From positions 558,001-622,000 of the forward strand of contig NW_026515682.1 of the NCBI RefSeq assembly GCF_025526975.1: a stretch of 64,000 nt of DNA, given 5' to 3'. Origin of the DNA: Fimicolochytrium jonesii (taxonomy: Eukaryota). Shown here piece after piece: positions 1 to 11,261 of the stretch; positions within the stretch are counted from its first letter, which is position 1, and every line of letters begins with the position of its first letter. The notes below the pieces were generated by a model. The model was not told where the DNA came from. It ran no database searches and saw only the letters and a program-made list of their open reading frames with translations. The translations under genes and the position numbers were made by a program.

Positions 1-119
1 CAGTTACCCCGCGGTTGCCCATACGTCTGCCGACCGCTGTGCAGACACCATTGCAATCACCCCCGCGATTTGAGTTCCCACCGTCTGTCCATCGCCACTT
101 GCCCGAAGCAATTGCAGAC

Positions 120-3100
120 ATGGTCAGCGAGAATTCCGGCGATGACGACGGGCAGCACCAGCAGCGAGGGCTTTCACCTGTGGAAAGGGGTCTGCAAGGT
201 CCGTTGAACCTCCCCGCTCCTATCCCTTTCCCTTTTCCCAGCACACCGGGTGGATCCCTGGTGCTTGAACCCCCGCCTCCACCACCAATTCAACGACCCC
301 GCCCGCAGACGCATGCCAGCACGAAGGTTTCCCTTCACCGAGTCCGTAATCACAATCAAGTGCAAAGGGAGCCCCTGACAACCTTCCTCGGCAATGTTCA
401 CGTCCTTGTGCGCCACACCACGTTCTTTCTCAAGTACTACCTTGGTGAGTTTTTGAGGTACACTGTATATTTCCCATAATATTTCCCATAACAATGTCCT
501 GACTGCTACATCTGCCCACCCCACCACAGCTGATCATCCTCTACACGATTTCCCGGACATCACCGACAAGCACATCAGTGTGATGTTTGAGCTGCTCAAC
601 AATCCAGGCTACAACGGCAATCCGGTCATCGCGCAAGAGTTGCGTCCACGGGTTCAAGAGTACTGTAATGTTCACGGATTTGCCCCCATCCGCATGCGAA
701 ATAGCCAACAGACCGCAGCGTACACCGCTCAGAGCATCTTCACCAACCTCAAAGTCAACGTATAGGAGCATTTTATGCAAATGTTTCTGCGCTATGTCAA
801 TGAACGGCTTGGTTTGAAGCAAGTTGTACTGCATCTCCGGAGAGCGCAGCGGCAACACTATTATCGTTGTGTCCGCCAATTCACAAAGTACGCGACATTT
901 GAAGAGTACCCAACGGAAGAGGAGCTTGCCGGCCTCACACGACTTGAGCGGACTCTCCTCGACGAGTTATGGGCTCTGTTTCCTCCCCAGGATGAGCCGC
1001 TTGCGTACAGCCTTGCGGTGGACGCAATGCCATATTTAGGTGAGTCAGCATATTTCCGCCCCCCCCCCCCCCCCCTCGGCTTCCTCTTTTGTCTAATCAT
1101 GGTTCACACCTGCCTCTCCACAGGTGCCTATTGTGAGCTCTCACGCCTCTATGAGCGCCGTGGAATGCAGCTGTTTTCCGCTATCCCGCTGCGCAAATCT
1201 CGAATCCAGTCATCTGTTCGGATCGACACGCTGATCCTAGGCACTCATATCCTGGATATCGGCCAACGTCGCATGGGGAAACTCACTGATGAACGCAAGC
1301 AGGAGCTGTGGGGGCAGTTCCTCAATGTGAATGTAAGTTAAGTCTGTCCCCTTCTGTGCTTGATTCAATCAGATTGCGTCGCTGAATGACGGATTGTAGG
1401 ACAAGGTCTTCAAACATCGAAAGAAGCTTGGTCTCAAGTTCGATGGGTCAATTAGCACCGACGGGTATTCCGCTACCATCCACTTCAAGAAGCCAGGGCT
1501 CAAGTACGGCCATCGCGCCCGGAAGCGCAGCAAAGCCCAAATGCAGGAAGAAGTCAAACAGCTGTATTTTGAGCACCACATTGACGACTTAAGGGAGGCT
1601 TCAAACATCGTCTGCATTGATCCGGGCAAGCGTGACCTCCTATTCTGTTGAGACAACAAGAAGGAGCGGCCATTTCGGTAAGTTTCAGTTGATTACTACT
1701 GCCCTGCTGTCCCCACCATCCCCCCCCCCCCCCCCAACCCTCGATTTTGCGGAAGATGGTGCGGAGGTGTTTGTGGACGTTGACTTGGAAGGGGTGGTTC
1801 CCCTGTTTGCGGACACGGGCAACGAAGTCGGTCCAGACGGCGTTGGCGGCTTCCGCAGCAGCCATGTTGGCAACGAGGGCCTCGGTGGCGCTGATCATGT
1901 TGTAGCAATTGCCACCGTTGCGGATCTGGGCAAGGAGTTTGTTGATGGAGTTGGACGATGACAGAGCCATCTACAGGGATGCCGCCCGCCGATGACGGAG
2001 GGTTGAAGGTCTTGGCAAGGCTGTTCGCAAGGGTGGCGATGGCTTCATTGTAGACAGCGGTGTCGCCGGCCATGTTGAATGGGAGTTCGGCAAAGCTGAC
2101 TGAGAAGCGTTTGCGGATGAGGGAGCGGACGCTGTTGGTTTGCTCGTTGCGCGTCATATCCACCTCTTCCCTGCTCGTCGCGTGGCCCATGTTGATGACC
2201 TGCATGATGGTGTCAAGGCCAGCCCTGTCCTCGTCCCCGTCCCCATCTTCCCCCCCCCCCCCCCCCCCCCTCACCGTCCCCACCATCTGTTGCCGCGTCC
2301 TCACAATGCACCACCCCATATCAGATACACATCCAATCAACGGGCGTTCGAGACAAAGTCTCGGTACTTTCAAAGAGACATGACAGAGCGAAAGATCAAT
2401 GCCGGCGTTGCTGAGATGGAATCACATATTCCGTCGCACAAGAGCATGAACATCGAGGCGCTCTCAGCGTTCATTGTGGATTACGAACATGCGGGTATGA
2501 TGTTCTACTTCAACTTTGATTTTCAAATTTGGTAATACAGGGGCTGACATCCATATCCCAGATCCAGCCCTGGATGAGTTTTACCAGGATGAGATTCACG
2601 TAGCTCGCAGATTCAAGGCGTTCTCACTGCGGCAAAAGTCTGAGAGCAAGCTCATCAAGAACATGCGACGCCTGTATGGAAAGCATTTTGAGGTCATCTT
2701 GGGTGATTGGAGCGACGCTGGAAAAACCATGCGCTTTCAGGAGTCATCAAAGACCAAGGGGTGAGTGACTATCATTGGTAGTAGCTACGATGTATTATAA
2801 TATGCTAACTCATCATGGAAATCAGATTCCGCACACTCTTTGCGAGAAACAGCATTCCATGCTACTTGCCGGATGAGCATCGAATGTCCTCCGTGTGCCC
2901 AGACTGCCACGGCCGTGTGAAGAAAAACATCCGACAGCGGCTGTCATCTCGGCCATGGCAAGCTAGAAAGGGAAGAATGGAATATATCCATGGATTGGTG
3001 GGTTGCCCCAACCCCGAATGTATCAACCAAGACTGGACACCATTTGAGATTCCTGGAAGACGACCACTACGGATGAAAGTGCACAATCGGGACATCCTAA

Positions 3101-3183
3101 GCACCAAGAATTTCCTCTTGATTGTGCGTTTGGTGGTGTTTGGCAATGGCCGCAGACCAGACGCATTCTCCCGTAACCGGTAG
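120..3183 (+). pseudogene. Fz1: Fanzor1 (TnpB/Cas12-like RuvC RNA-guided endonuclease), 7 exons, ~682 aa, with two in-frame stops
   Basis: Exons 120-444, 530-1039, 1124-1332, 1400-1677, 2325-2494, 2562-2760 and 2826-3183 join in frame across GT-AG introns (85, 84, 67, 647, 67, 65 nt), most with a CTRAY-like branch point. Motifs: TNLKVNV*EHFMQMFLRYVN (resembles SpuFz1, from memory), FDGSISTDGYS, RuvC-I VCIDPGKRDLL, FRYTSNQR, VILGDWS, RuvC-II DEHRMSS, Zn ribbon CPDC...CPNPEC, RuvC-III NRDILSTKN. Stops: TAG 763-765 and TGA 1649-1651. Confidence 0.93.
1721..2287 (-). other. ~567-bp insertion in Fanzor intron 4 carrying a frameshifted antisense coding-like fragment
   Basis: A 12-bp direct repeat GTCCCCACCATC lies at 1709-1720 and 2276-2287, with poly-C tracts at both ends. 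Removing the insert shrinks the intron from 647 to 80 nt, like the other introns. Minus-strand ORFs 1696-2373 and 1554-1970 span it. Confidence 0.6.
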
Positions 3184-3300
3184 TCTCGAATTTTCACCCC
3201 ATTCCATTTTCCGTGGTGGTTATCTGCCATCCACATCATTGTACCTCTGCTGGAGGCGTCGCCGATGATGGCAACTTGTAAAGTTTCTGTAGATATCTGT
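3184..3300 (+). ncRNA. Putative Fanzor omegaRNA (scaffold to ~3281, guide from downstream flank)
   Basis: ~98 nt after the stop codon are conserved between the two copies and end abruptly at ...GGCAACTTGTAA (3281). Stems: GTGGTGG/CCATCCAC, and CATCATTG/CGATGATG enclosing CCTC/GAGG. Confidence 0.7.
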
Positions 3301-3475
3301 AAGGAAAATTGTTTCCTCCACCCCGCTTTGACCGTTTTCCACAAGTCGGAAAAGAAACACTTTGCGTCACAGTTCTGTTGAAGGCATCACGTTCATGTGA
3401 AATGTACAGTATACACAAAAATTTCCAGCCCCGACAACAAACGAACCCTTCCACACACACCAACCCAGTCCCCCC

Positions 3476-6034
3476 CTACCGCCGATAATAATGCCTCTTA
3501 AAATGGAACCAAAGCTGCAACACGCCCCGATCAAAACTGCTCCTAAACCCCTTCTTATGGCTATACTCCCACTCCCGATTCACAATCTTGAACGCGATAT
3601 CCTCGTACGGCGGCCCGGCTTTGAACCGCAGGATGATGGTGTCGTCTTGCGCTTTGCTGTTGGTTGGGTCGGTTGGGTCTACCGCCGTGGAGGTTGAGGT
3701 GGGGTCTTTTTCGCGGACGTAGGTTGGGGCGATGGATTTGTCGATTAGGTCCGGGTAGAAGATGTTGAATTTGTAGCCTTGGACGACCTGTTTAGTGGAT
3801 CTTGTTAGTGGGGTGTGGTCGGGTGGGGGGTGGGTGGGTTCTCTAAGGATGAATAGGGAGAGCCTTACCTTGGGAGGAGGGTTATCGCCATCATAATGCG
3901 TCTGGTTATACTTATTCCACTCGTATCCTGTATGCACACGGTTAAAGTAGCGCGGTTTACGTGGACGGTACTTATCCTGCCACAGGTACGTATCCTACAA
4001 AAGCCATAGAGTCAACACCAATGCCAGGCGGTAAGTCAGTCGATATTGTAGTTACCTGCGACGCGGAAATGACAACAGCCTCCTCGTTGAACGCGGCCTC
4101 GTCCATGCCCATGTTCTCGGCCGCGTCGCGGATGAAGGCCTTCTCGGCAACGTCTTCCATGGATTGGTTGGCGCCGACAAGGGCGAGGGCTTGGTGGGCG
4201 GGCGGGCCACCGAGGGCTTTTGTGACTTTTTCTCGGAGTGCAATCTAAAGGAAGGAAGGGGGAGTATCAGTTTCTGGAACATACGGATATTCGTGACGAC
4301 AGTATAGCCGCAACCCACCAACTGCCTCAAATCCTCCTCCTCATCCACAACCTCAAACCCGGCATCCGCCTTGGGTATCCTCCCACACACCACGGGCCCC
4401 ATACTCTCCTCATATTCTTCCACCTCCCCATCACTCTCCTCCTCCTCCTCCCTACCGCCCACGTCCACATCCATCTCATCCTCCTCCACATCCGCCCGCC
4501 CACTGCGCACATGCTGCACAAGGATCCGCGGTTGTTGTGAAGCGCCAGAGTCCTGATTGAGCGCGCGCTGCTCACGGAGTCGGTCGAGACGTTTGCTGAG
4601 GAGGAAGGAATGCATGTCGCGGAGTTTCGCTTTGGCTTTCCAGACTACTAGGGCTTTGATCGCTGCTTCCCAGTAGTCCACGTCAACAGGCGGTGCGGGT
4701 TCACTCATAGACGATGCGCCGGTGAGAGCAGCAGCAGCGGCCCCCGCGGCAGCCAACTTTTTCTCAATCTGCGTTTGGAGGATGCTGAGCTGGTCGTAGG
4801 TTTTGTTGGAGAACATCCGCTCGATGTCCTGCGTTACGGCTTTGCTGACGCCTGAAGAGCGCCCGCCGGAGGAGAGATCTTCGCGGTGTCGGCTGAGCTC
4901 GTCGTCGCAGACGACGATCATAGCCTCCCAGAAGCGTTTGTTGGTGTGGTCGGTTTCCAGGGAGAGGTACAGCTGAATATCCTTATGCAGCTCCTCGACT
5001 TCTGGGAGGGAGAGGTTACGGAAGATGAGGTAGGGCTCCTCAACGCCCATTTCCAACCCCAGGGCGTCAAACTCCTCCGCCAGTTTCGTGTCGCTCGCCA
5101 AACTGAGATTCATAGCGAGGATATCAATCGGCTTAGCCCGCCCCTCCTTGATCCTGATCTGCGCCCTTGTCTTCGCCTGACCCAAATGAAACTCATTCTC
5201 TTTCGCCTCCCAATCCCCCAACGCCAGTCGGTCCTGCTCCCGCTGCAGCCGCGCCTGCTCCTCCTCTCTCAACTGCATCTCGATCTCGCGCTCGTTACGT
5301 CTGCGTTTCAGTTTGGATAGCTCGTCCTCAACTTCTTCGCGGCGTGACATGTCCCGCCTGGCGCGCTCGGCAGCCGATAACCCGCTCTTACTCTCCTTCT
5401 CGCGTTTCTTCAGCCATAAAAACTTATTCGACAGGTTACTGTCCCCGAACGGGTTCTCGGTGTTGGAGTAACCCAACGAAGCAGACATCTGCGCAGCGAG
5501 CTGGGACTCCTTCTGAGCCTGGATCTCGTCCTTCAGCTGCTGTTTCTCGAGTTTGCGCTCGGCTTTGCGGATTTTCTTCTCGACGGAGGTTTCCCGTTGC
5601 TTTTTGGGCTTTTTTGAACTGCTTTTGGATTTGCTGCCGCTTCGGCTCCCACTGCGGTCGTCACGCTTTTCGGCTTTGCTAGTTCGCTTCCGCTTCCGAG
5701 ACCGGTCATGCTCGGAATCAGACGAAACTGAACCGCTGTCGCTGCCCCGTCCACGCTCATCACCCCCTCGTCGCCGCCTCCCACCCCCATCCTCACTAAC
5801 CACCGGACTACGATTCCTACTCCCCCTGTGATCCCGGCTATCATCCCGCCTCCTCCGCACACGATCATCCTCCACCGAGCGATCCCGCCCCCGTCGCCGG
5901 TCATCATCCCAATCCCGATCCCAATCCCGACTTTTGTCGTCCCTCCGGTCCCTGCGTAAGGTCTCTGAATCTCCCCGCCGCGGTAAGCTCGTGGACCTGC
6001 TTCGGTCGCGGTGGGATTTGTAGCGGTCGCCCAT
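3476..6034 (-). CDS. CACTIN: Cactin (spliceosome-associated factor), 4 exons, ~780 aa
   Basis: Exons 6034-4319, 4244-4056, 3994-3869 and 3787-3476 with GT-AG introns. RS/RD-rich N-terminus. Cactin_mid motifs YSNTENPFGD and RIKEGRAKPIDIL. C-terminal KYRPRKPRYFNRVHTGYEWNKYNQTHYD...GYKFNIFYPDLIDK...AGPPYEDIAF...FHFKRHYYRR. Confidence 0.96.
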
Positions 6035-6178
6035 TGGGTGTGATAGGGTGTAAGCGGAAACTGGGGGCGAAAGTTACTCGACCGGCGAAATGTAAGGTCC
6101 GTGAGGGAGTCGGTTCAGGCACGAAAACTAGCCGCTGGAAGCGAAATACATGGTCTTTTGCAGGTTGCGATCGTCGAT

Positions 6179-6218
6179 GAGTTGGGCAAGTTTGCGAGTT
6201 GGGCAAGTTTGCGAGTTG
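6179..6218. repeat. 17-bp tandem duplication upstream of cactin
   Basis: GAGTTGGGCAAGTTTGC x2 followed by GAGTTG. Confidence 0.8.
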
Positions 6219-6437
6219 ATAGTTAGGGCTTTCCTCAGCGAATTAAAGTTTTATAAGGTGCCATGTGACATATGTTCGTTTATTTACTGGACTTCTTCCC
6301 ATCTGGCAGTGGGAACTTCTAACAGAGAGAGCTGGGACCTCCCATTCCCCTCCAATTTGCAAAAGTCCGACGGTCACGTCGCAAATTTTTCTATACAAAA
6401 AGCGAGGGTCCATCTATATAAACAAAAGTCTGTCTCA

Positions 6438-7889
6438 TCAATTCGGCGTCCCACCCGCCTGCAACCGATAGATAACCAACACAACCCCCCTACTCTCCAC
6501 CCTCGGCCCCAGCTCTACCTTAACTACCTTATCATCATCACATCTATACCACTGCGGCAGTCCCCTCAACCTCGTATACGTCAGAAAATGTCCCTCGGTC
6601 TGCGTGACGAAGCCGTGCAGTCTATAAAACGTCTTTTGGTCGGATTGGCGGTTGGAGAGGTAGAACCCGAGATCGACTTCGGTAGGGAGTTCTACGGGGG
6701 TGTTGTGGTAGGTTTGGGGGGTGGTGGGGTCGAGTGGGCGTTGAAAGTAGATGGTGAAGAAGTGGGGAAGGACGGTGATGCGGGTTTGGGTTTTGCGAGG
6801 GGGTGGGCGGGGTGTTGGAGGTGTGAGGGGGCGGCCGGTGGGTGGGTGGAAGGAAGAATGGGAGGAGGGCGACGAGGTGGAGGAGGATGAGGTCGGTGGG
6901 GTGGGGAGTTGAGATTTCATGAGTGAGCGGTTGTTGAAGGCGCCCCCAAAGAAGAACGTCGCGACCGCGTGGCCCAGGTGGTCGTTTAGCAACGAGAGCA
7001 GGGTCACGCAGTCGTTGCGGGAATACTGGGCGAGCGATATCTTGAGGAACTTTGCAGTTTCGTGGTTCGATTTCGCTCGCTTGCTTCCATTCTGTGTTGT
7101 CCCGTTCTCCTTAGCTCCCTCCGTGGTCCCGTTCTCCACACCTTCCTCGTGGGTAGAATCACCATCGGTATCCACATGCGCATTCCGATCGCCCACCCTT
7201 CCCGCCCTTTCCGGGACACAATCCGGATGTGGCCCGTGCACCAACCCAATCTGAAACCGCTGCCCGAATCTCGTCAACAGCAACACATCATCAAACAACG
7301 TGCTCAAAATCGAGTCCACGCTCTCATGAGGCAGCGTATGTCTCGCATCAGGGCTATCATCATGCGGAACCCGAGATGCGCTCCTCCACCATTCCAACTC
7401 CAGCGAATCGGCCGATGCCACGCGTGGCGAGGGCACGTCGTCGGAAACGGGGTTCCCGTGTAATTGGAGCACAGTGCACACAAAATCGGATACTGCGGCG
7501 TAGGGCGATGCGACGGGTAGCTCTTCGTTCAGATCAGGTAGGGTAGTGAAGGCTTGTAGGAGGGCGTTTAGAGCTGACCGGGGTTTGGAGTTGTGCGGGT
7601 TCGGGAGGCCCTGCAGGAAGCTTTGCGAAATAAAGCGGCAGTGAGAAGATGCGCTGAATGAGTGAATTCTGACGACTTGACTCACTCATTCGGAGGATAG
7701 CTAATACACGGCTCATTCAGTTTCTCTTCCTGAGGTGGATATACAATTACTGTAGGGAGGGGACGACGCCAGGAGCGTGAGAAAGGGGTTCCGTCTATTG
7801 CATTTTCCCACGACCCCGACGCGCAAAAAAAAAGGCTGGCACGTAACAAACCACATACCTTGTGGGTTCATCACCTTGAGATTCACCAT
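6438..7889 (-). CDS. Ubiquitin-specific protease (peptidase C19)-like protein, probably catalytically inactive
   Basis: Long ORF 6438-7685. His box YRLHGFVTQTEGHFLTY...WYRCDDDKV and a degenerate Cys box GLPNPHNSKPRSALNALLQAF. Tentative exons 7889-7859, 7749-7686, 7620-6438; the 5' structure is uncertain. Confidence 0.65.
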
Positions 7890-8214
7890 GGTGATAGTGC
7901 GATAGGAGAGGATATCAGCCAACTGCTTCAGAAACTGGGTGGGATGTTGGAAGAGGTCAGGGCGCGATTGAACAGGATGTGGGTGGCTTGCAAGCGGGTT
8001 GCTCCTGAAGACGGGCGATCGTTCTGTACGTGGGCGAGGGCCCGGTGGTCGGCGGCTGAGGGTAGCTCGGTATCTTTCCTCGTCGCTGATTGCTACCCCT
8101 GGTTGTTGTCTGTGGGAACAGGGACGGATGGTGGAGTGTTGTTGAGGCGAAGCTTGCCCTAAGTCGAGAAGGCTTCAAGACCAAGGCTATGGGCAACAAA
8201 AGGGACGTGACGGC

Positions 8215-8332
8215 TTGGTTGTGGCCATTAGATGTTACAAGTTGCCATCATCGGCGACGCCTCAGGCAGAGGTACAATGATGTGGATGGCCGATAACCAC
8301 CACGGAAAATGGAATGGGGTGAAAATTCTAGA
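8215..8332 (-). ncRNA. Second putative Fanzor omegaRNA (same scaffold, different guide)
   Basis: The reverse complement of 8235-8332 matches 3184-3281 with a few substitutions. The flank beyond 8235 (CATCTAATGGCCACAACC...) is unrelated to the copy-1 flank. Confidence 0.7.
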
Positions 8333-9227
8333 CTACCGGTTACGGGAGAATGCGTCTGGTCTGCGGCCATTGCCAAACACCACCGAACGCACAATCAAGA
8401 GGAAATTCTTGGTGCTTAGGATGTCCCGATTGTGCACTTTCATCCGTAGTGGTCGTCTTCCAGGAATCTCAAATGGTGTCCAGTCTTGGTTGATACATTC
8501 GGGGTTGGGGCAACCCACCAATCCATGGATATATTCCATTCTTCCCTTTCTAGCTTGCCATGGCCGAGATGACAGCCGCTGTCGGATGTTTTTCTTCACA
8601 CGGCCGTGGCAGTCTGGGCACACGGAGGACATTCGATGCTCATCTAGCAAGTAGCATGGAATGCTGTTTCTTGCAAAGAGTGTGCGGAATCTGATTTCCA
8701 TGATGAGTTAGCATATTATAATACATCGTAAGTACTACCAATGATAGTCACTCACCCCTTGGTCTTTGATGACTCCTGAAAGCGCATGGTTTTTCCAGCG
8801 TCGCTCCAATCACCCAAGATGACCTCAAAATGCTTTCCATACAGGCGTCGCATGTTCTTGATGAGCTTGCTCTCAGACTTTTGCCGCAGTGAGAACGCCT
8901 TGAATCTGCGAGCTACGTGAATCTCATCCTGGTAAAACTCATCCAGGGCTGGATCTGGGATATGGATGTCAGCCCCTGTATTACCAAATTTGAAAATCAA
9001 AGTTGAAGTAGAACATCATACCCGCATGTTCGTAATCCACAATGAACGCTGAGAGCGCCGCGATGTTCATGCTCTTGTGCGACGGAATATGTGATTCCAT
9101 CTCAGCAACGCCGGCATTGATCTTTCGCTCTGTCATGTCTCTTTGAAAGTACCGAGACTTTGTCTCGAACGCCCGTTGATTGGATGTGTATCTGATATGG
9201 GGTGGTGCATTGTGAGGACGCTGCAAC
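8235..9227 (-). pseudogene. Fz1: 5'-truncated inverted Fanzor1 copy (exons 5-7 plus 3' end)
   Basis: Near-identical inverted duplicate of 2288-3281. ORFs 8333-8701, 8752-9000 and 8981-9226 mirror copy 1. Lacks the N-terminus and RuvC-I. Confidence 0.92.
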
Positions 9228-9902
9228 GGAAAGTCTCGCCGCTTTTATCGCAGACGCTGCAACTACTCCGCCAAGCAAGCCAGGAAGGATGGCTACCCAA
9301 TGTGGAAGGATCGCGGCGAAAGCAAGTAGAAGGTATCGGTGGCGACAAGTAGCCATACATGGAAAGGCGAGTCACACATCCCACATTATAAAGCAAGCAA
9401 AACACTGAACTCAACCGCATCGCCGACAAGACCTCATCCCTGATATTCTCCCCCCTTACAAGCTGTCGGCGGAGATGCGGTCGGTGGCCAGAGGGGTATG
9501 GCAGGTTACGTAGCGGGTGGTAGTAGCGGGGACGATGTCGACGGAATCATTGGAACTTTCCTTGCCAGAGCTGGTGGGGGGAAGAGGACGACCAGGAGAA
9601 AGACGCTGGAGCGGGACGTCGTCCATTGAAGGGATGGGACATGGCAATATGAAGGTACTCGGCGAGTGAGGCTTTGGAGACGGAAGTGATGGACAGGGGA
9701 GAGTGGGGCGAGCAACCATGCCGTCCGTTCATATCATACAGTATCATCCCGCGAGCCCTCCTGCCCGCAACGGTTCGATGACATGGACGCAATGAACTTA
9801 ACTAGCCGAGCTCAACTGCCCCCCCACCAATCGCCTCCCAGCCCTCGGTACATTGCGTACATATACCGGCTTGCCTCGTCTGCAAGAAGGTGAGAGTACG
9901 TA

Positions 9903-11130
9903 CAGTATGTGACTATATGTCTGCGACCACCCGTGACTTCCAGGTCGGGAAAAGCACCATGGATACATTGCAATTCAGGAGCGGGTCAGCATTACCGCAG
10001 TCAAGTGAACCGTGAAAGTCTTTCAAAACGACGACCCCAGCGATCCCAACTCCTACCAGTCCAAGAAAAAACCAGGAAGACCTGCTAAGTGGCAACCTTC
10101 ACCGCCTGAAATTGAGCAACTTCAGCAGCTTGTCATGGCTGACAACGAGACCAGGAGGAAATCACTCGCAGTTCTTACAATTGAATTCACAGCTCTCTTC
10201 CGTATCAATGTTTACAAAAAGACGGTGCGACAGTATCTCCGAAAACACTTGGACCTCCATTCGCGGTACAAAATTCGGAAACCAATGTTAACTGATTGGC
10301 ATCGGGCTGCGAGACTTGCGTTTGCATTGGAGCATCAGAATTGGACGTACGCTGACTGGTCACGGGTGGTTTGGACTGACGAAACATCGTTTGAAATTGG
10401 GTGGGTCCCTAAAATGCGATGCTGGCGCCTTCGGACTGAAGCTCTCCATCCCGATTGCGTACAGGTCACACAGAGGAGCAGCCGTAAAACATTCATGTAT
10501 TGGGGAGCCTTCATAGGGAATGCCATTGGCCCAATGAACGAGGTGGAGCGAGTTCAGCGTCCTGGCGAAAACCGTAGAGGTATCAACTCAACTGCTTATG
10601 TTGCACACTTGACAACTCACATGTTGCCCTTGTGGCATAATCTTGAGATTTTTATCCCCAATCTGATTTTCATGCAGGACAACGCACCTATCCACACCAG
10701 CGCTGAAACCTGACAATTCTTCAACAAACACGGCATTGAGGTTATGCCCTGGCCTGCTCAAAGTCCCGACCTCAACCCAATTGAGAACCTCTGGGTGATG
10801 ATGAAGCGGGAGGTCTCGGCAGCCAATGCAACGGCAACGACAGTAGATGAGGTAGTGAAGAACCTTTGGCCAACGATGGGTAGGTATCTGGACAATTTAG
10901 TTAGATCCATGCCAAGGAGAATGGCTGCGGTGATAGCTGCCAACGGGGGAAGCACAAAGTATTAGGAGACTGATGCCGTGCCGTGGTTTAGGATGATTGT
11001 GGTATCCACAACTCACTTTGACTGGGCAGAAATCAACATTGCGGCGACCATCGAAGCCGTCAACTTAATGGCAGCGCGCAATGGACACTGACTTAATCAC
11101 GTGAGGTCGCAGACATATAGTCACATACTG
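9903..11130 (+). mobile_element. Tc1/mariner DNA transposon (DD34E), defective
   Basis: Perfect 26-bp TIRs CAGTATGTGACTATATGTCTGCGACC at 9903-9928 and 11105-11130; TA TSD at 9901-9902 and 11131-11132. Confidence 0.95.
9958..10965 (+). pseudogene. Tc1-like DD34E transposase with in-frame stops
   Basis: VWTDET...FMQDNAPIH...WPAQSPDLNPIENLW with 34 residues between D and E. TGA at 10006-10008 and 10711-10713. The N-terminus appears truncated. Confidence 0.92.
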
Positions 11131-11261
11131 TACTGTACAGTATGAAAAAAGAGTGAGGTCGCACACACGCGCACACGACGGAACCAACCCGCTCCACCCC
11201 GTCTTTCCGGCCCCCGAGGAACATGTGCAAGTCTGGCGAAACAAAACACTTGGCGACCCCT

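Follow-up and report, generated by a model that had tools for sequence, protein, structure and literature searches.

By its sequence, the segment that follows the stop codon of a Fanzor1 gene in Fimicolochytrium jonesii forms the right end of a Fanzor1 element that contains introns and is related to SpuFz1. Positions 3206–3280 on the plus strand and their twin at 8310–8236 close a Fanzor1 transposon with multiple copies on its right side, which ends in TA, and they are likely the template of an omegaRNA of the SpuFz1 type. F. jonesii is a chytrid of the order Spizellomycetales, and the window, i.e. the whole stretch of DNA that was analysed, comprises 64,000 nt of the forward strand of NW_026515682.1 (558,001–622,000). 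The sequence-only reading had proposed one omegaRNA scaffold with two guides and the TA as target-site duplication (TSD). This is still the best reading of the locus, and its support now comes from outside the comparison of the two copies, because the adjacent gene is related to SpuFz1, the RNA segment has an Fz1-like stem-loop 1 and independent contigs break off at the TA.

The Fanzor1 gene of copy 1 is a pseudogene at positions 1–3183 (+), whose 5′ end lies before the window. On the basis of its sequence, the translations and tblastn with family proteins, seven exons (<1–444, 530–1039, 1124–1332, 1400–1677, 2325–2494, 2562–2760 and 2826–3183) and six GT-AG introns were assigned. The frame upstream of the segment closes with a TAG at 3181–3183, and two further stops occur in frame at 763–765 and 1649–1651. 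Copy 2 is a 3′ fragment only (8333–9230, −), which starts inside intron 4, continues with exons 5–7 and lacks the 5′ two-thirds of the gene (exons 1–4); neither its upstream exons nor its left end were found within the 64-kb window. The two copies are inverted relative to each other and share 996 nt (2286–3281 on the plus strand and 8235–9230 on the minus strand) at 98.7% identity with 13 differences. Neither of them has an intact reading frame and, given the stops in copy 1 and the truncation of copy 2, any RNA from either locus would act in trans. A third copy of the element end was not found within the window, with up to three mismatches allowed. Intron 4 of copy 1 (1678–2324) is 647 nt long. 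It includes two tracts of poly-C, and direct repeats of 12 bp (1709–1720 and 2276–2287) flank a segment of about 550 bp without a Pfam match. A long C-rich sequence is also present at the position of intron 4 in other family members, and copy 2 ends there. The many short gene models of the family were considered as a sign of a bias to 5′-truncated copies; we did not adopt this view, as gene models could just as well be broken by the long C-rich intron 4.

Protein comparisons place the gene close to SpuFz1. The last exon of copy 1 matched SpuFz1 (8GKH) with an E-value of 2e-27 and PpFz1 with 8e-7, these being the only two matches, and the family protein P0002 matched SpuFz1 with an E-value of 3e-122. 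Identity between family proteins and SpuFz1 is 44–46%. All 13 matches of a first protein search came from F. jonesii (68–98% identical), and four protein clusters alone comprise 38 members, 35 of which are named F. jonesii records. P0008, another member of the family, shares 56% identity with a Gaertneriomyces protein and 41–46% with S. punctatus paralogues. An AlphaFold2 model of P0098, a family member other than the window pseudogene, reached a mean pLDDT of 83 and best matched 8GKH and 9CEU (TM 0.75–0.79, 42% identity), followed by PpFz1 and GtFz1; the WED/REC/RuvC/TNB architecture of Fanzor1 proteins of the SpuFz1 clade was recognized in the sequence and in the fold of this model. The RuvC D-E-D triad and the zinc-finger cysteines are found in the window in the motifs IDPGKRD, DEHRMSSVCPDC and HNRD, and D383, E541 and D606, which form the catalytic triad of SpuFz1, are retained in the alignment of P0008. 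The exchange corresponding to N385G was rejected as a catalytic defect, since DPG is described as the usual Fanzor signature motif (PMC10711439). Pfam searches detected no Fanzor or TnpB family in the four exon pieces scanned and a single TNB match, below threshold, among four family proteins. One Fanzor1-like protein, P0057, is filed under a Bacteroidota MAG on a contig of 3.3 kb, which is probably a eukaryotic contig in that bin.

To locate the end of the element we used four public metagenome runs that carry small shares of it, all as DNA contigs of related organisms. Mapped to copy 1, four independent contigs from two studies reach the end; three of them stop at 3280 and one at 3281. Mapped to copy 2, the same three stop at 8236 and the fourth shares two bases of the flank. 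Each of the four carries its own flank, and in all of them the divergence from the window copies sets in at +1 to +3 after the TA. Counting the window copies, the base after the TA is A in three of six ends; the others have T, C or G, of which the C and the G come from two contigs with merged loose ends that were decoded by hand from opposite-strand consensus lines by alphabetical tie-breaking, which fits 30/30 positions. Because three of the four contigs stop at 3280 and the following base is mixed, we place the element end at the TA; of the 'TA or TAA' that had been suggested before, the TA (3280) thus stands and the TAA (3281) does not. Homology running well past this point would have spoken against the omegaRNA reading, and in all four contigs it breaks off, so that a sharp right-end boundary followed by a variable flank is seen in the two window copies and in four contigs.

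The TA at 3279–3280 (+) would serve both as a putative TSD and as the last two bases of the scaffold, an assignment based on the contig ends and on the precedent of SPu-1, for which terminal inverted repeats (TIRs) of 33 bp as well as putative TA TSDs have been described (PMC3627910). The left TA of copy 1 lies beyond the window, and neither a second TA nor an element-free allele was observed. Fz1 scaffolds are predicted to include both the TIR and the TSD (PMC10711439). For the F. jonesii element, a probable right TIR of at least 39 nt including the TA may be placed at 3242–3280 (+), as one contig of the X1 run matches this part only (0 mismatches to copy 2) and does not include stem-loop 1. 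This contig probably represents the left terminal repeat, a single inferred observation.

The divergence of the two window copies after 3281 and 8235, with the flanks quoted in the sequence-only reading, was reproduced from the sequence, and so were the approximately 98 nt that both copies share after the stop, which contain four differences (3187, 3225, 3251 and 3252). The claim that all of these 98 nt form the scaffold did not hold, as homology to SpuFz1 gives a scaffold of 75 nt at 3206–3280. The RNA of SpuFz1 is reported to be 88–90 nt long and to consist of a 75-nt scaffold and a guide of 14–15 nt (PMC10432273). With this length and register, and with the end set by the contigs, the predicted scaffold of copy 1 extends over 3206–3280 (+); that of copy 2, placed by its fold and by the contigs, extends over 8236–8310 (−) and carries a minority G at position 20. 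The first 22 nt after the stop (3184–3205, +) are probably not part of the scaffold, to judge from the register of the SpuFz1 RNA and from the changes in an independent contig, which has substitutions at 3187 and 3203 and indels at 3178–3190. From the divergence point and the length of the SpuFz1 guide, a guide of 14–15 nt in unique flanking sequence is predicted at 3281–3295 (+) for copy 1; the predicted guide of copy 2 lies at 8221–8235 (−). The predicted guides thus start at 3281 and 8235, both with an A. No further target of these guides with up to two mismatches was present in the window besides the loci themselves, and none of four window sites with three mismatches to guide 1 is preceded by TA.

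The part of the scaffold that most resembles known Fz1 RNAs is a UCC leader (3210–3212) followed by stem-loop 1, which together cover 3210–3234 (+) and lie 26 nt 3′ of the stop. Stem-loop 1 has 7 bp (3213–3219 with 3227–3234, including one bulged base) and a conserved loop of 7 nt (3220–3226), one base longer than in SpuFz1; a stem of seven base pairs is reported for all three Fz1 structures (PMC11423790). By eye, each of the seven published Spizellomyces and Parasitella RNAs examined (PMC10432273) shows a TCC leader, then a 7-base arm whose last base is G, and a loop that reads TT(A/G)TCG. A strict TCC-arm-TT(A/G)TCG motif had one match in the window, namely copy 2, with 0.24 expected. A relaxed motif, with one more loop base and a 7-bp stem, matched both copies only and none of 200 resampled 64-kb sequences, the extra loop base having been added after copy 1 had been seen. 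Stem-loop 1 alone (3206–3236, a region chosen post hoc) folds better than shuffled sequences in both copies (z −3.2 and −2.5), and the 98-nt segment shows no folding excess over shuffles (z −0.01 and −0.48). Read by eye in register with SpuFz1, both copies share U5, C6, C7, U16, U18, C19, C32, U35, C40 and A75. Of the 19 SpuFz1 scaffold bases named in PMC10432273, 10 are identical in copy 1 and 11 in copy 2, which adds G20; G17, G22, A29, C34, G37, G70 and A72 of SpuFz1 are unmatched in register. Rfam returned nothing at 3184–3305 and four weak matches elsewhere in 1–10000 (E 1–4). A spliced omegaRNA was rejected, as inspection by eye showed no GT(A/G)AG donor in the 75 nt.

Position 20 is U in all four independent right-end contigs that cover it and in 5/6 ends overall. 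Therefore, the loop of the family is read as UUAUC(U/G)G, in which the G of copy 2 is the minority state. A broken C6–G20 pair in copy 1 with an intact pair in copy 2 was rejected, because U is the majority state in the contigs; G21 would then be the likelier partner of C6.

Evidence for constraint on this region cannot be drawn from the two window copies, because the post-stop stretch differs at 4/98 positions and the rest of the repeat at 9/898 (Fisher p = 0.03), so that the former is the more divergent part. The earlier statement that the differences avoid the stems was not confirmed, with two events within the scaffold. Among 34 family proteins listed, DEHRMSS occurs in the products of the two window loci only (P0065 and P0001), the others having DEY; by sequence, copies 1 and 2 are sister copies, and their identity thus reflects a recent duplication and an approximate end rather than constraint. 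These observations would also fit a dead relic, in which the segment is derived from an omegaRNA, the loci or even the whole family no longer yield a working nuclease and the 98 nt are a recently duplicated end kept for its terminal repeat. The two stops in copy 1 and the fragmentary state of copy 2 agree with such a relic, as does the G20 of copy 2, which permits a rival helix and weakens stem-loop 1 (pair probability approximately 0.2 in the bare 75-mer and 0.7 with flank); so does the loss of the arginine that anchors the target-adjacent motif (TAM) from 15/17 family proteins. However, both copies retain an intact stem-loop 1, and the two differences that could be placed in independent contigs (3203 and 3225) fall outside its pairs; elsewhere in the family, P0097 and P0098 are full-length gene models that carry all three catalytic motifs; and ghost loci without a gene are reported to give working RNAs in S. 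punctatus (PMC10432273). On balance, we consider a dead relic possible but unlikely.

If the segment is the template of an omegaRNA, as we prefer, the right-end transcript would be trimmed to about 89–90 nt, i.e. the 75-nt scaffold and 14–15 nt that run on into the flank as guide. The RNA would then be loaded in trans onto Fanzor1 protein from intact copies elsewhere in the genome, in the manner of the SpuFz1 ghost RNAs. The complex might cut an element-free allele (NNTA followed by the right flank), and repair from the occupied allele would restore the element. Such restorative homing has been shown for TnpB and IscB (PMC13565253) and is presumed for Fanzor, the biological role of which was called unknown by Saito et al. 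(PMC10432273). The occupied allele would be spared, presenting TGTA at the TAM position. Since TGTA precedes the guide match in this allele, the TAM would then read NNTA, where NN is not TG, and is probably not CATA. A DDE transposase that generates TA duplications may mobilise the element itself in trans. A Tc1/mariner element at 9903–11133 was rejected as the mobiliser, its terminal repeats being unlike the Fanzor end and giving no BLAST match; it has TIRs of about 27 bp, a flanking TA and a transposase frame in which a stop occurs near 10711. Host genes for cactin, at 3476–6034 (−), and for a protein with a ubiquitin C-terminal hydrolase domain, at 6438–7685 (−), lie between the two Fanzor copies, and the region 11300–64000 is a dense nest of Ty3/Gypsy (some with a chromodomain) and Ty1/Copia retrotransposon fragments.

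The REC loop is an oddity of the family. The equivalent of R96 of SpuFz1 is absent from 15 of 17 family proteins, which have Gly instead, and from the window (560–640, exon 2), so that the conserved arginine is retained in P0084 and P0095 only. The TAM-anchoring Arg is present in 26/32 relatives, 12 of the 32 being S. punctatus paralogues. The loop comprises 19 residues in the family compared with 22–24 in most relatives and is five residues shorter than in SpuFz1, and N133 of SpuFz1 is replaced by Ala. The equivalent exchange R85A is reported to have abolished GtFz1 activity (PMC11423790), and in the one probable left end, from the X1 run, the repeat is preceded by (A/G)(C/G)TA, not CATA, according to hand decoding. 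In a family that makes its RNA, the short Arg-less REC loop might give a nuclease with an altered or relaxed TAM recognition or a weakly cutting RNA-guided DNA binder. We regard this as improbable: four of the 32 relatives have neither Arg nor Lys in this column, the catalytic triad is intact, and the loss of Arg may be decay in a family that is spread by a transposase in trans. Similarly improbable is a wider scenario, in which an intron-rich F. jonesii Fz1 would have kept its triad and omegaRNA, shed the Arg loop and rebuilt the region after stem-loop 1 from a new terminal repeat; it would use a different or relaxed TAM or act as a DNA binder, and dozens of broken copies would supply guides in trans. 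The family-wide loss of Arg is the one feature that merits an experiment, as it bears on the evolution of TAM recognition in Fz1, and an Arg-less family could yield a compact editor with another TAM.

Returning to the predicted omegaRNA, the region that follows stem-loop 1 is described as possibly unconstrained in Fz1 (PMC11423790), and two of the helices that the sequence-only reading had drawn were recovered by folding. The hairpin CCTC/GAGG is firm (pair probabilities 0.91–0.97 overall and 0.94–0.96 in copy 1), and the stem GTGGTGG/CCATCCAC is probable (0.65–0.87 in copy 1). The second stem, CATCATTG/CGATGATG, turned out to be a minority fold, with a pair probability of 0.32–0.45 in copy 1 and about 0.1 in copy 2, and of 0.15–0.20 when stem-loop 1 was enforced; under these conditions a second hairpin (53–70) was favoured (0.58–0.78). 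A closing helix like that of SpuFz1 can be drawn with four pairs, two of them G–U (U35–A75, G36–U74, U37–G73 and A38–U72); in free RNA its pair probability is 0.0, and it is about 6 kcal/mol costlier than the open form. Most likely, the region would close on the terminal UA (U35–A75 and G36–U74) as in SpuFz1, held by the protein. Homology favours this helix, because the register holds for U35, G36 and the terminal UA, the contacts to stem 2 are kept and PpFz1 is reported to manage with four pairs (PMC11423790). In P0008, K312, R317 and Q482, which contact the base of stem 2, are identical to SpuFz1 and R315 is replaced by Lys (three of four identical, one conservative); identity is 7/17 for residues that contact stem-loop 1 and 1/4 for linker contacts. 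A scaffold of about 98 nt that ends in TAA and has CATCATTG/CGATGATG as its second stem is very improbable even though an A follows the TA in both window copies and in one of the four contigs and the 8-bp stem is able to form, its energy being within about 1.5 kcal/mol of that of the competing pair of hairpins, for the other three contigs stop one base earlier, the first 22 nt tolerate substitutions and indels, and the stem would use up U35 and G36 and leave the last 10 bases unpaired, where Fz1 scaffolds are reported to end double-stranded (PMC10432273, PMC10711439).

A metagenome scan yielded five related loci (L024–L028) from 286 candidates. L025 and L026 represent one and the same element, and the sequence of L028 does not extend to the stop. 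In L024, L025/L026 and L027, a TCC-stem-loop is found by eye just after their own Fz1 stop, with arm sequences that are unrelated. The scripted motif matched none of the five loci. Covariation in a 5-row alignment of stem-loop 1 was not significant, 44 of 500 shuffles reaching the score, and the whole scaffolds of the distant loci could not be aligned with MAFFT. L027 folds as stem-loop 1 and a long stem that closes on the terminal TA (91 nt), and its sequence makes it a clean candidate orthologue. At 3327–3417 of L027, the Fz1 relative looks unspliced and 3328–3415 folds at z −3.3; letters of its terminal stem are shared with the SpuFz1 RNA. In L024 (3190–3290), the ORF and stem-loop 1 overlap in the last codons, and a 28-nt GTAAG...TAG stretch downstream resembles, by eye, a very short intron. 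An inverted terminal repeat was not found in L024–L028. Related loci were detected neither among 16 candidates in genome contigs, with no matches in a further search, nor among 124 candidates in viral contigs. A 17-nt motif had 23 matches in viral contigs, and the seven examined were chance matches (27–40/100 identical). Together with the published RNAs and three metagenomic relatives, the segment suggests a short omegaRNA signature of the clade that consists of TCC, a stem of 6–7 bp and a loop with C(N)G at its end.

The architecture of the element has been known since 2013 and 2023 for SPu-1/SpuFz1 of Spizellomyces punctatus (PMC3627910, PMC10432273; PDB 8GKH and 9CEU–9CEZ), and the F. jonesii element is a new relative. 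For this reason a specialist would not be surprised by it. Introns and nuclear localisation signals in Fanzors were already known (PMC10530073), and Yoon et al. (2023; PMC10711439) had already listed Fanzor proteins of F. jonesii in their Table S2, where the genus name occurs 33 times. In the openly accessible full-text literature, as opposed to subscription papers, patents and Repbase, we found no published account of this RNA. Neither the genus name nor the window motifs occur in the searchable supplements of Saito et al. (eight of nine), and the genus name is absent from two supplements of Jiang et al., a weak indication as Spizellomyces was missed there too. The coordinates of the scaffold, the TA boundary and the guide start can now be tested for an uncharacterised family of SpuFz1 orthologues.

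Compared with SpuFz1, the F. jonesii family belongs to the same fungal order and has the same protein fold and D-E-D triad at the identity given above. As in SPu-1/SpuFz1, the element ends in TA, a predicted 75-nt scaffold lies between the stop and this TA and the variable flank would provide the guide; the UCC leader and a 7-bp stem-loop 1 closed by G–C are shared as well. Like SPu-1, the part of the element within the window shows no transposase inside. Unlike SpuFz1, which is encoded by a single ORF, copy 1 has six introns, and the gene models of the family carry an N-terminal, Pro-rich extension that spans about 130 residues and contains a basic cluster. The proteins also differ in DPG versus DPN, in N133A and in the shorter REC loop that mostly lacks R96. 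In the RNA, the arms of stem-loop 1 are unrelated in sequence to those of SpuFz1 and the loop has 7 nt; the region behind it is likewise unrelated and is predicted to fold as two small hairpins, whereas SpuFz1 has one long stem. The terminal repeat is unrelated to that of SPu-1 and apparently longer (at least 39 nt versus 30–33), and CATA is probably not the TAM.

PpFz1 of Parasitella parasitica (Xu et al., 2024; PMC11423790; PDB 9CF0–9CF3) shares the TCC leader, the 7-bp stem and the TTATCG loop, the same six letters occurring in copy 2, and has a second stem of four base pairs only. However, its protein is approximately 20% identical by structure, its RNA is shorter and its TAM is ATN. The SfAV Fanzor1 reRNA (Yoon et al., 2023; PMC10711439) belongs to a viral element with a different TSD. 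Likened by description, it nevertheless agrees with the F. jonesii element in a TIR and TSD predicted within the scaffold, in a predicted three-stem shape and in a guide that extends about 15 nt past the TSD.
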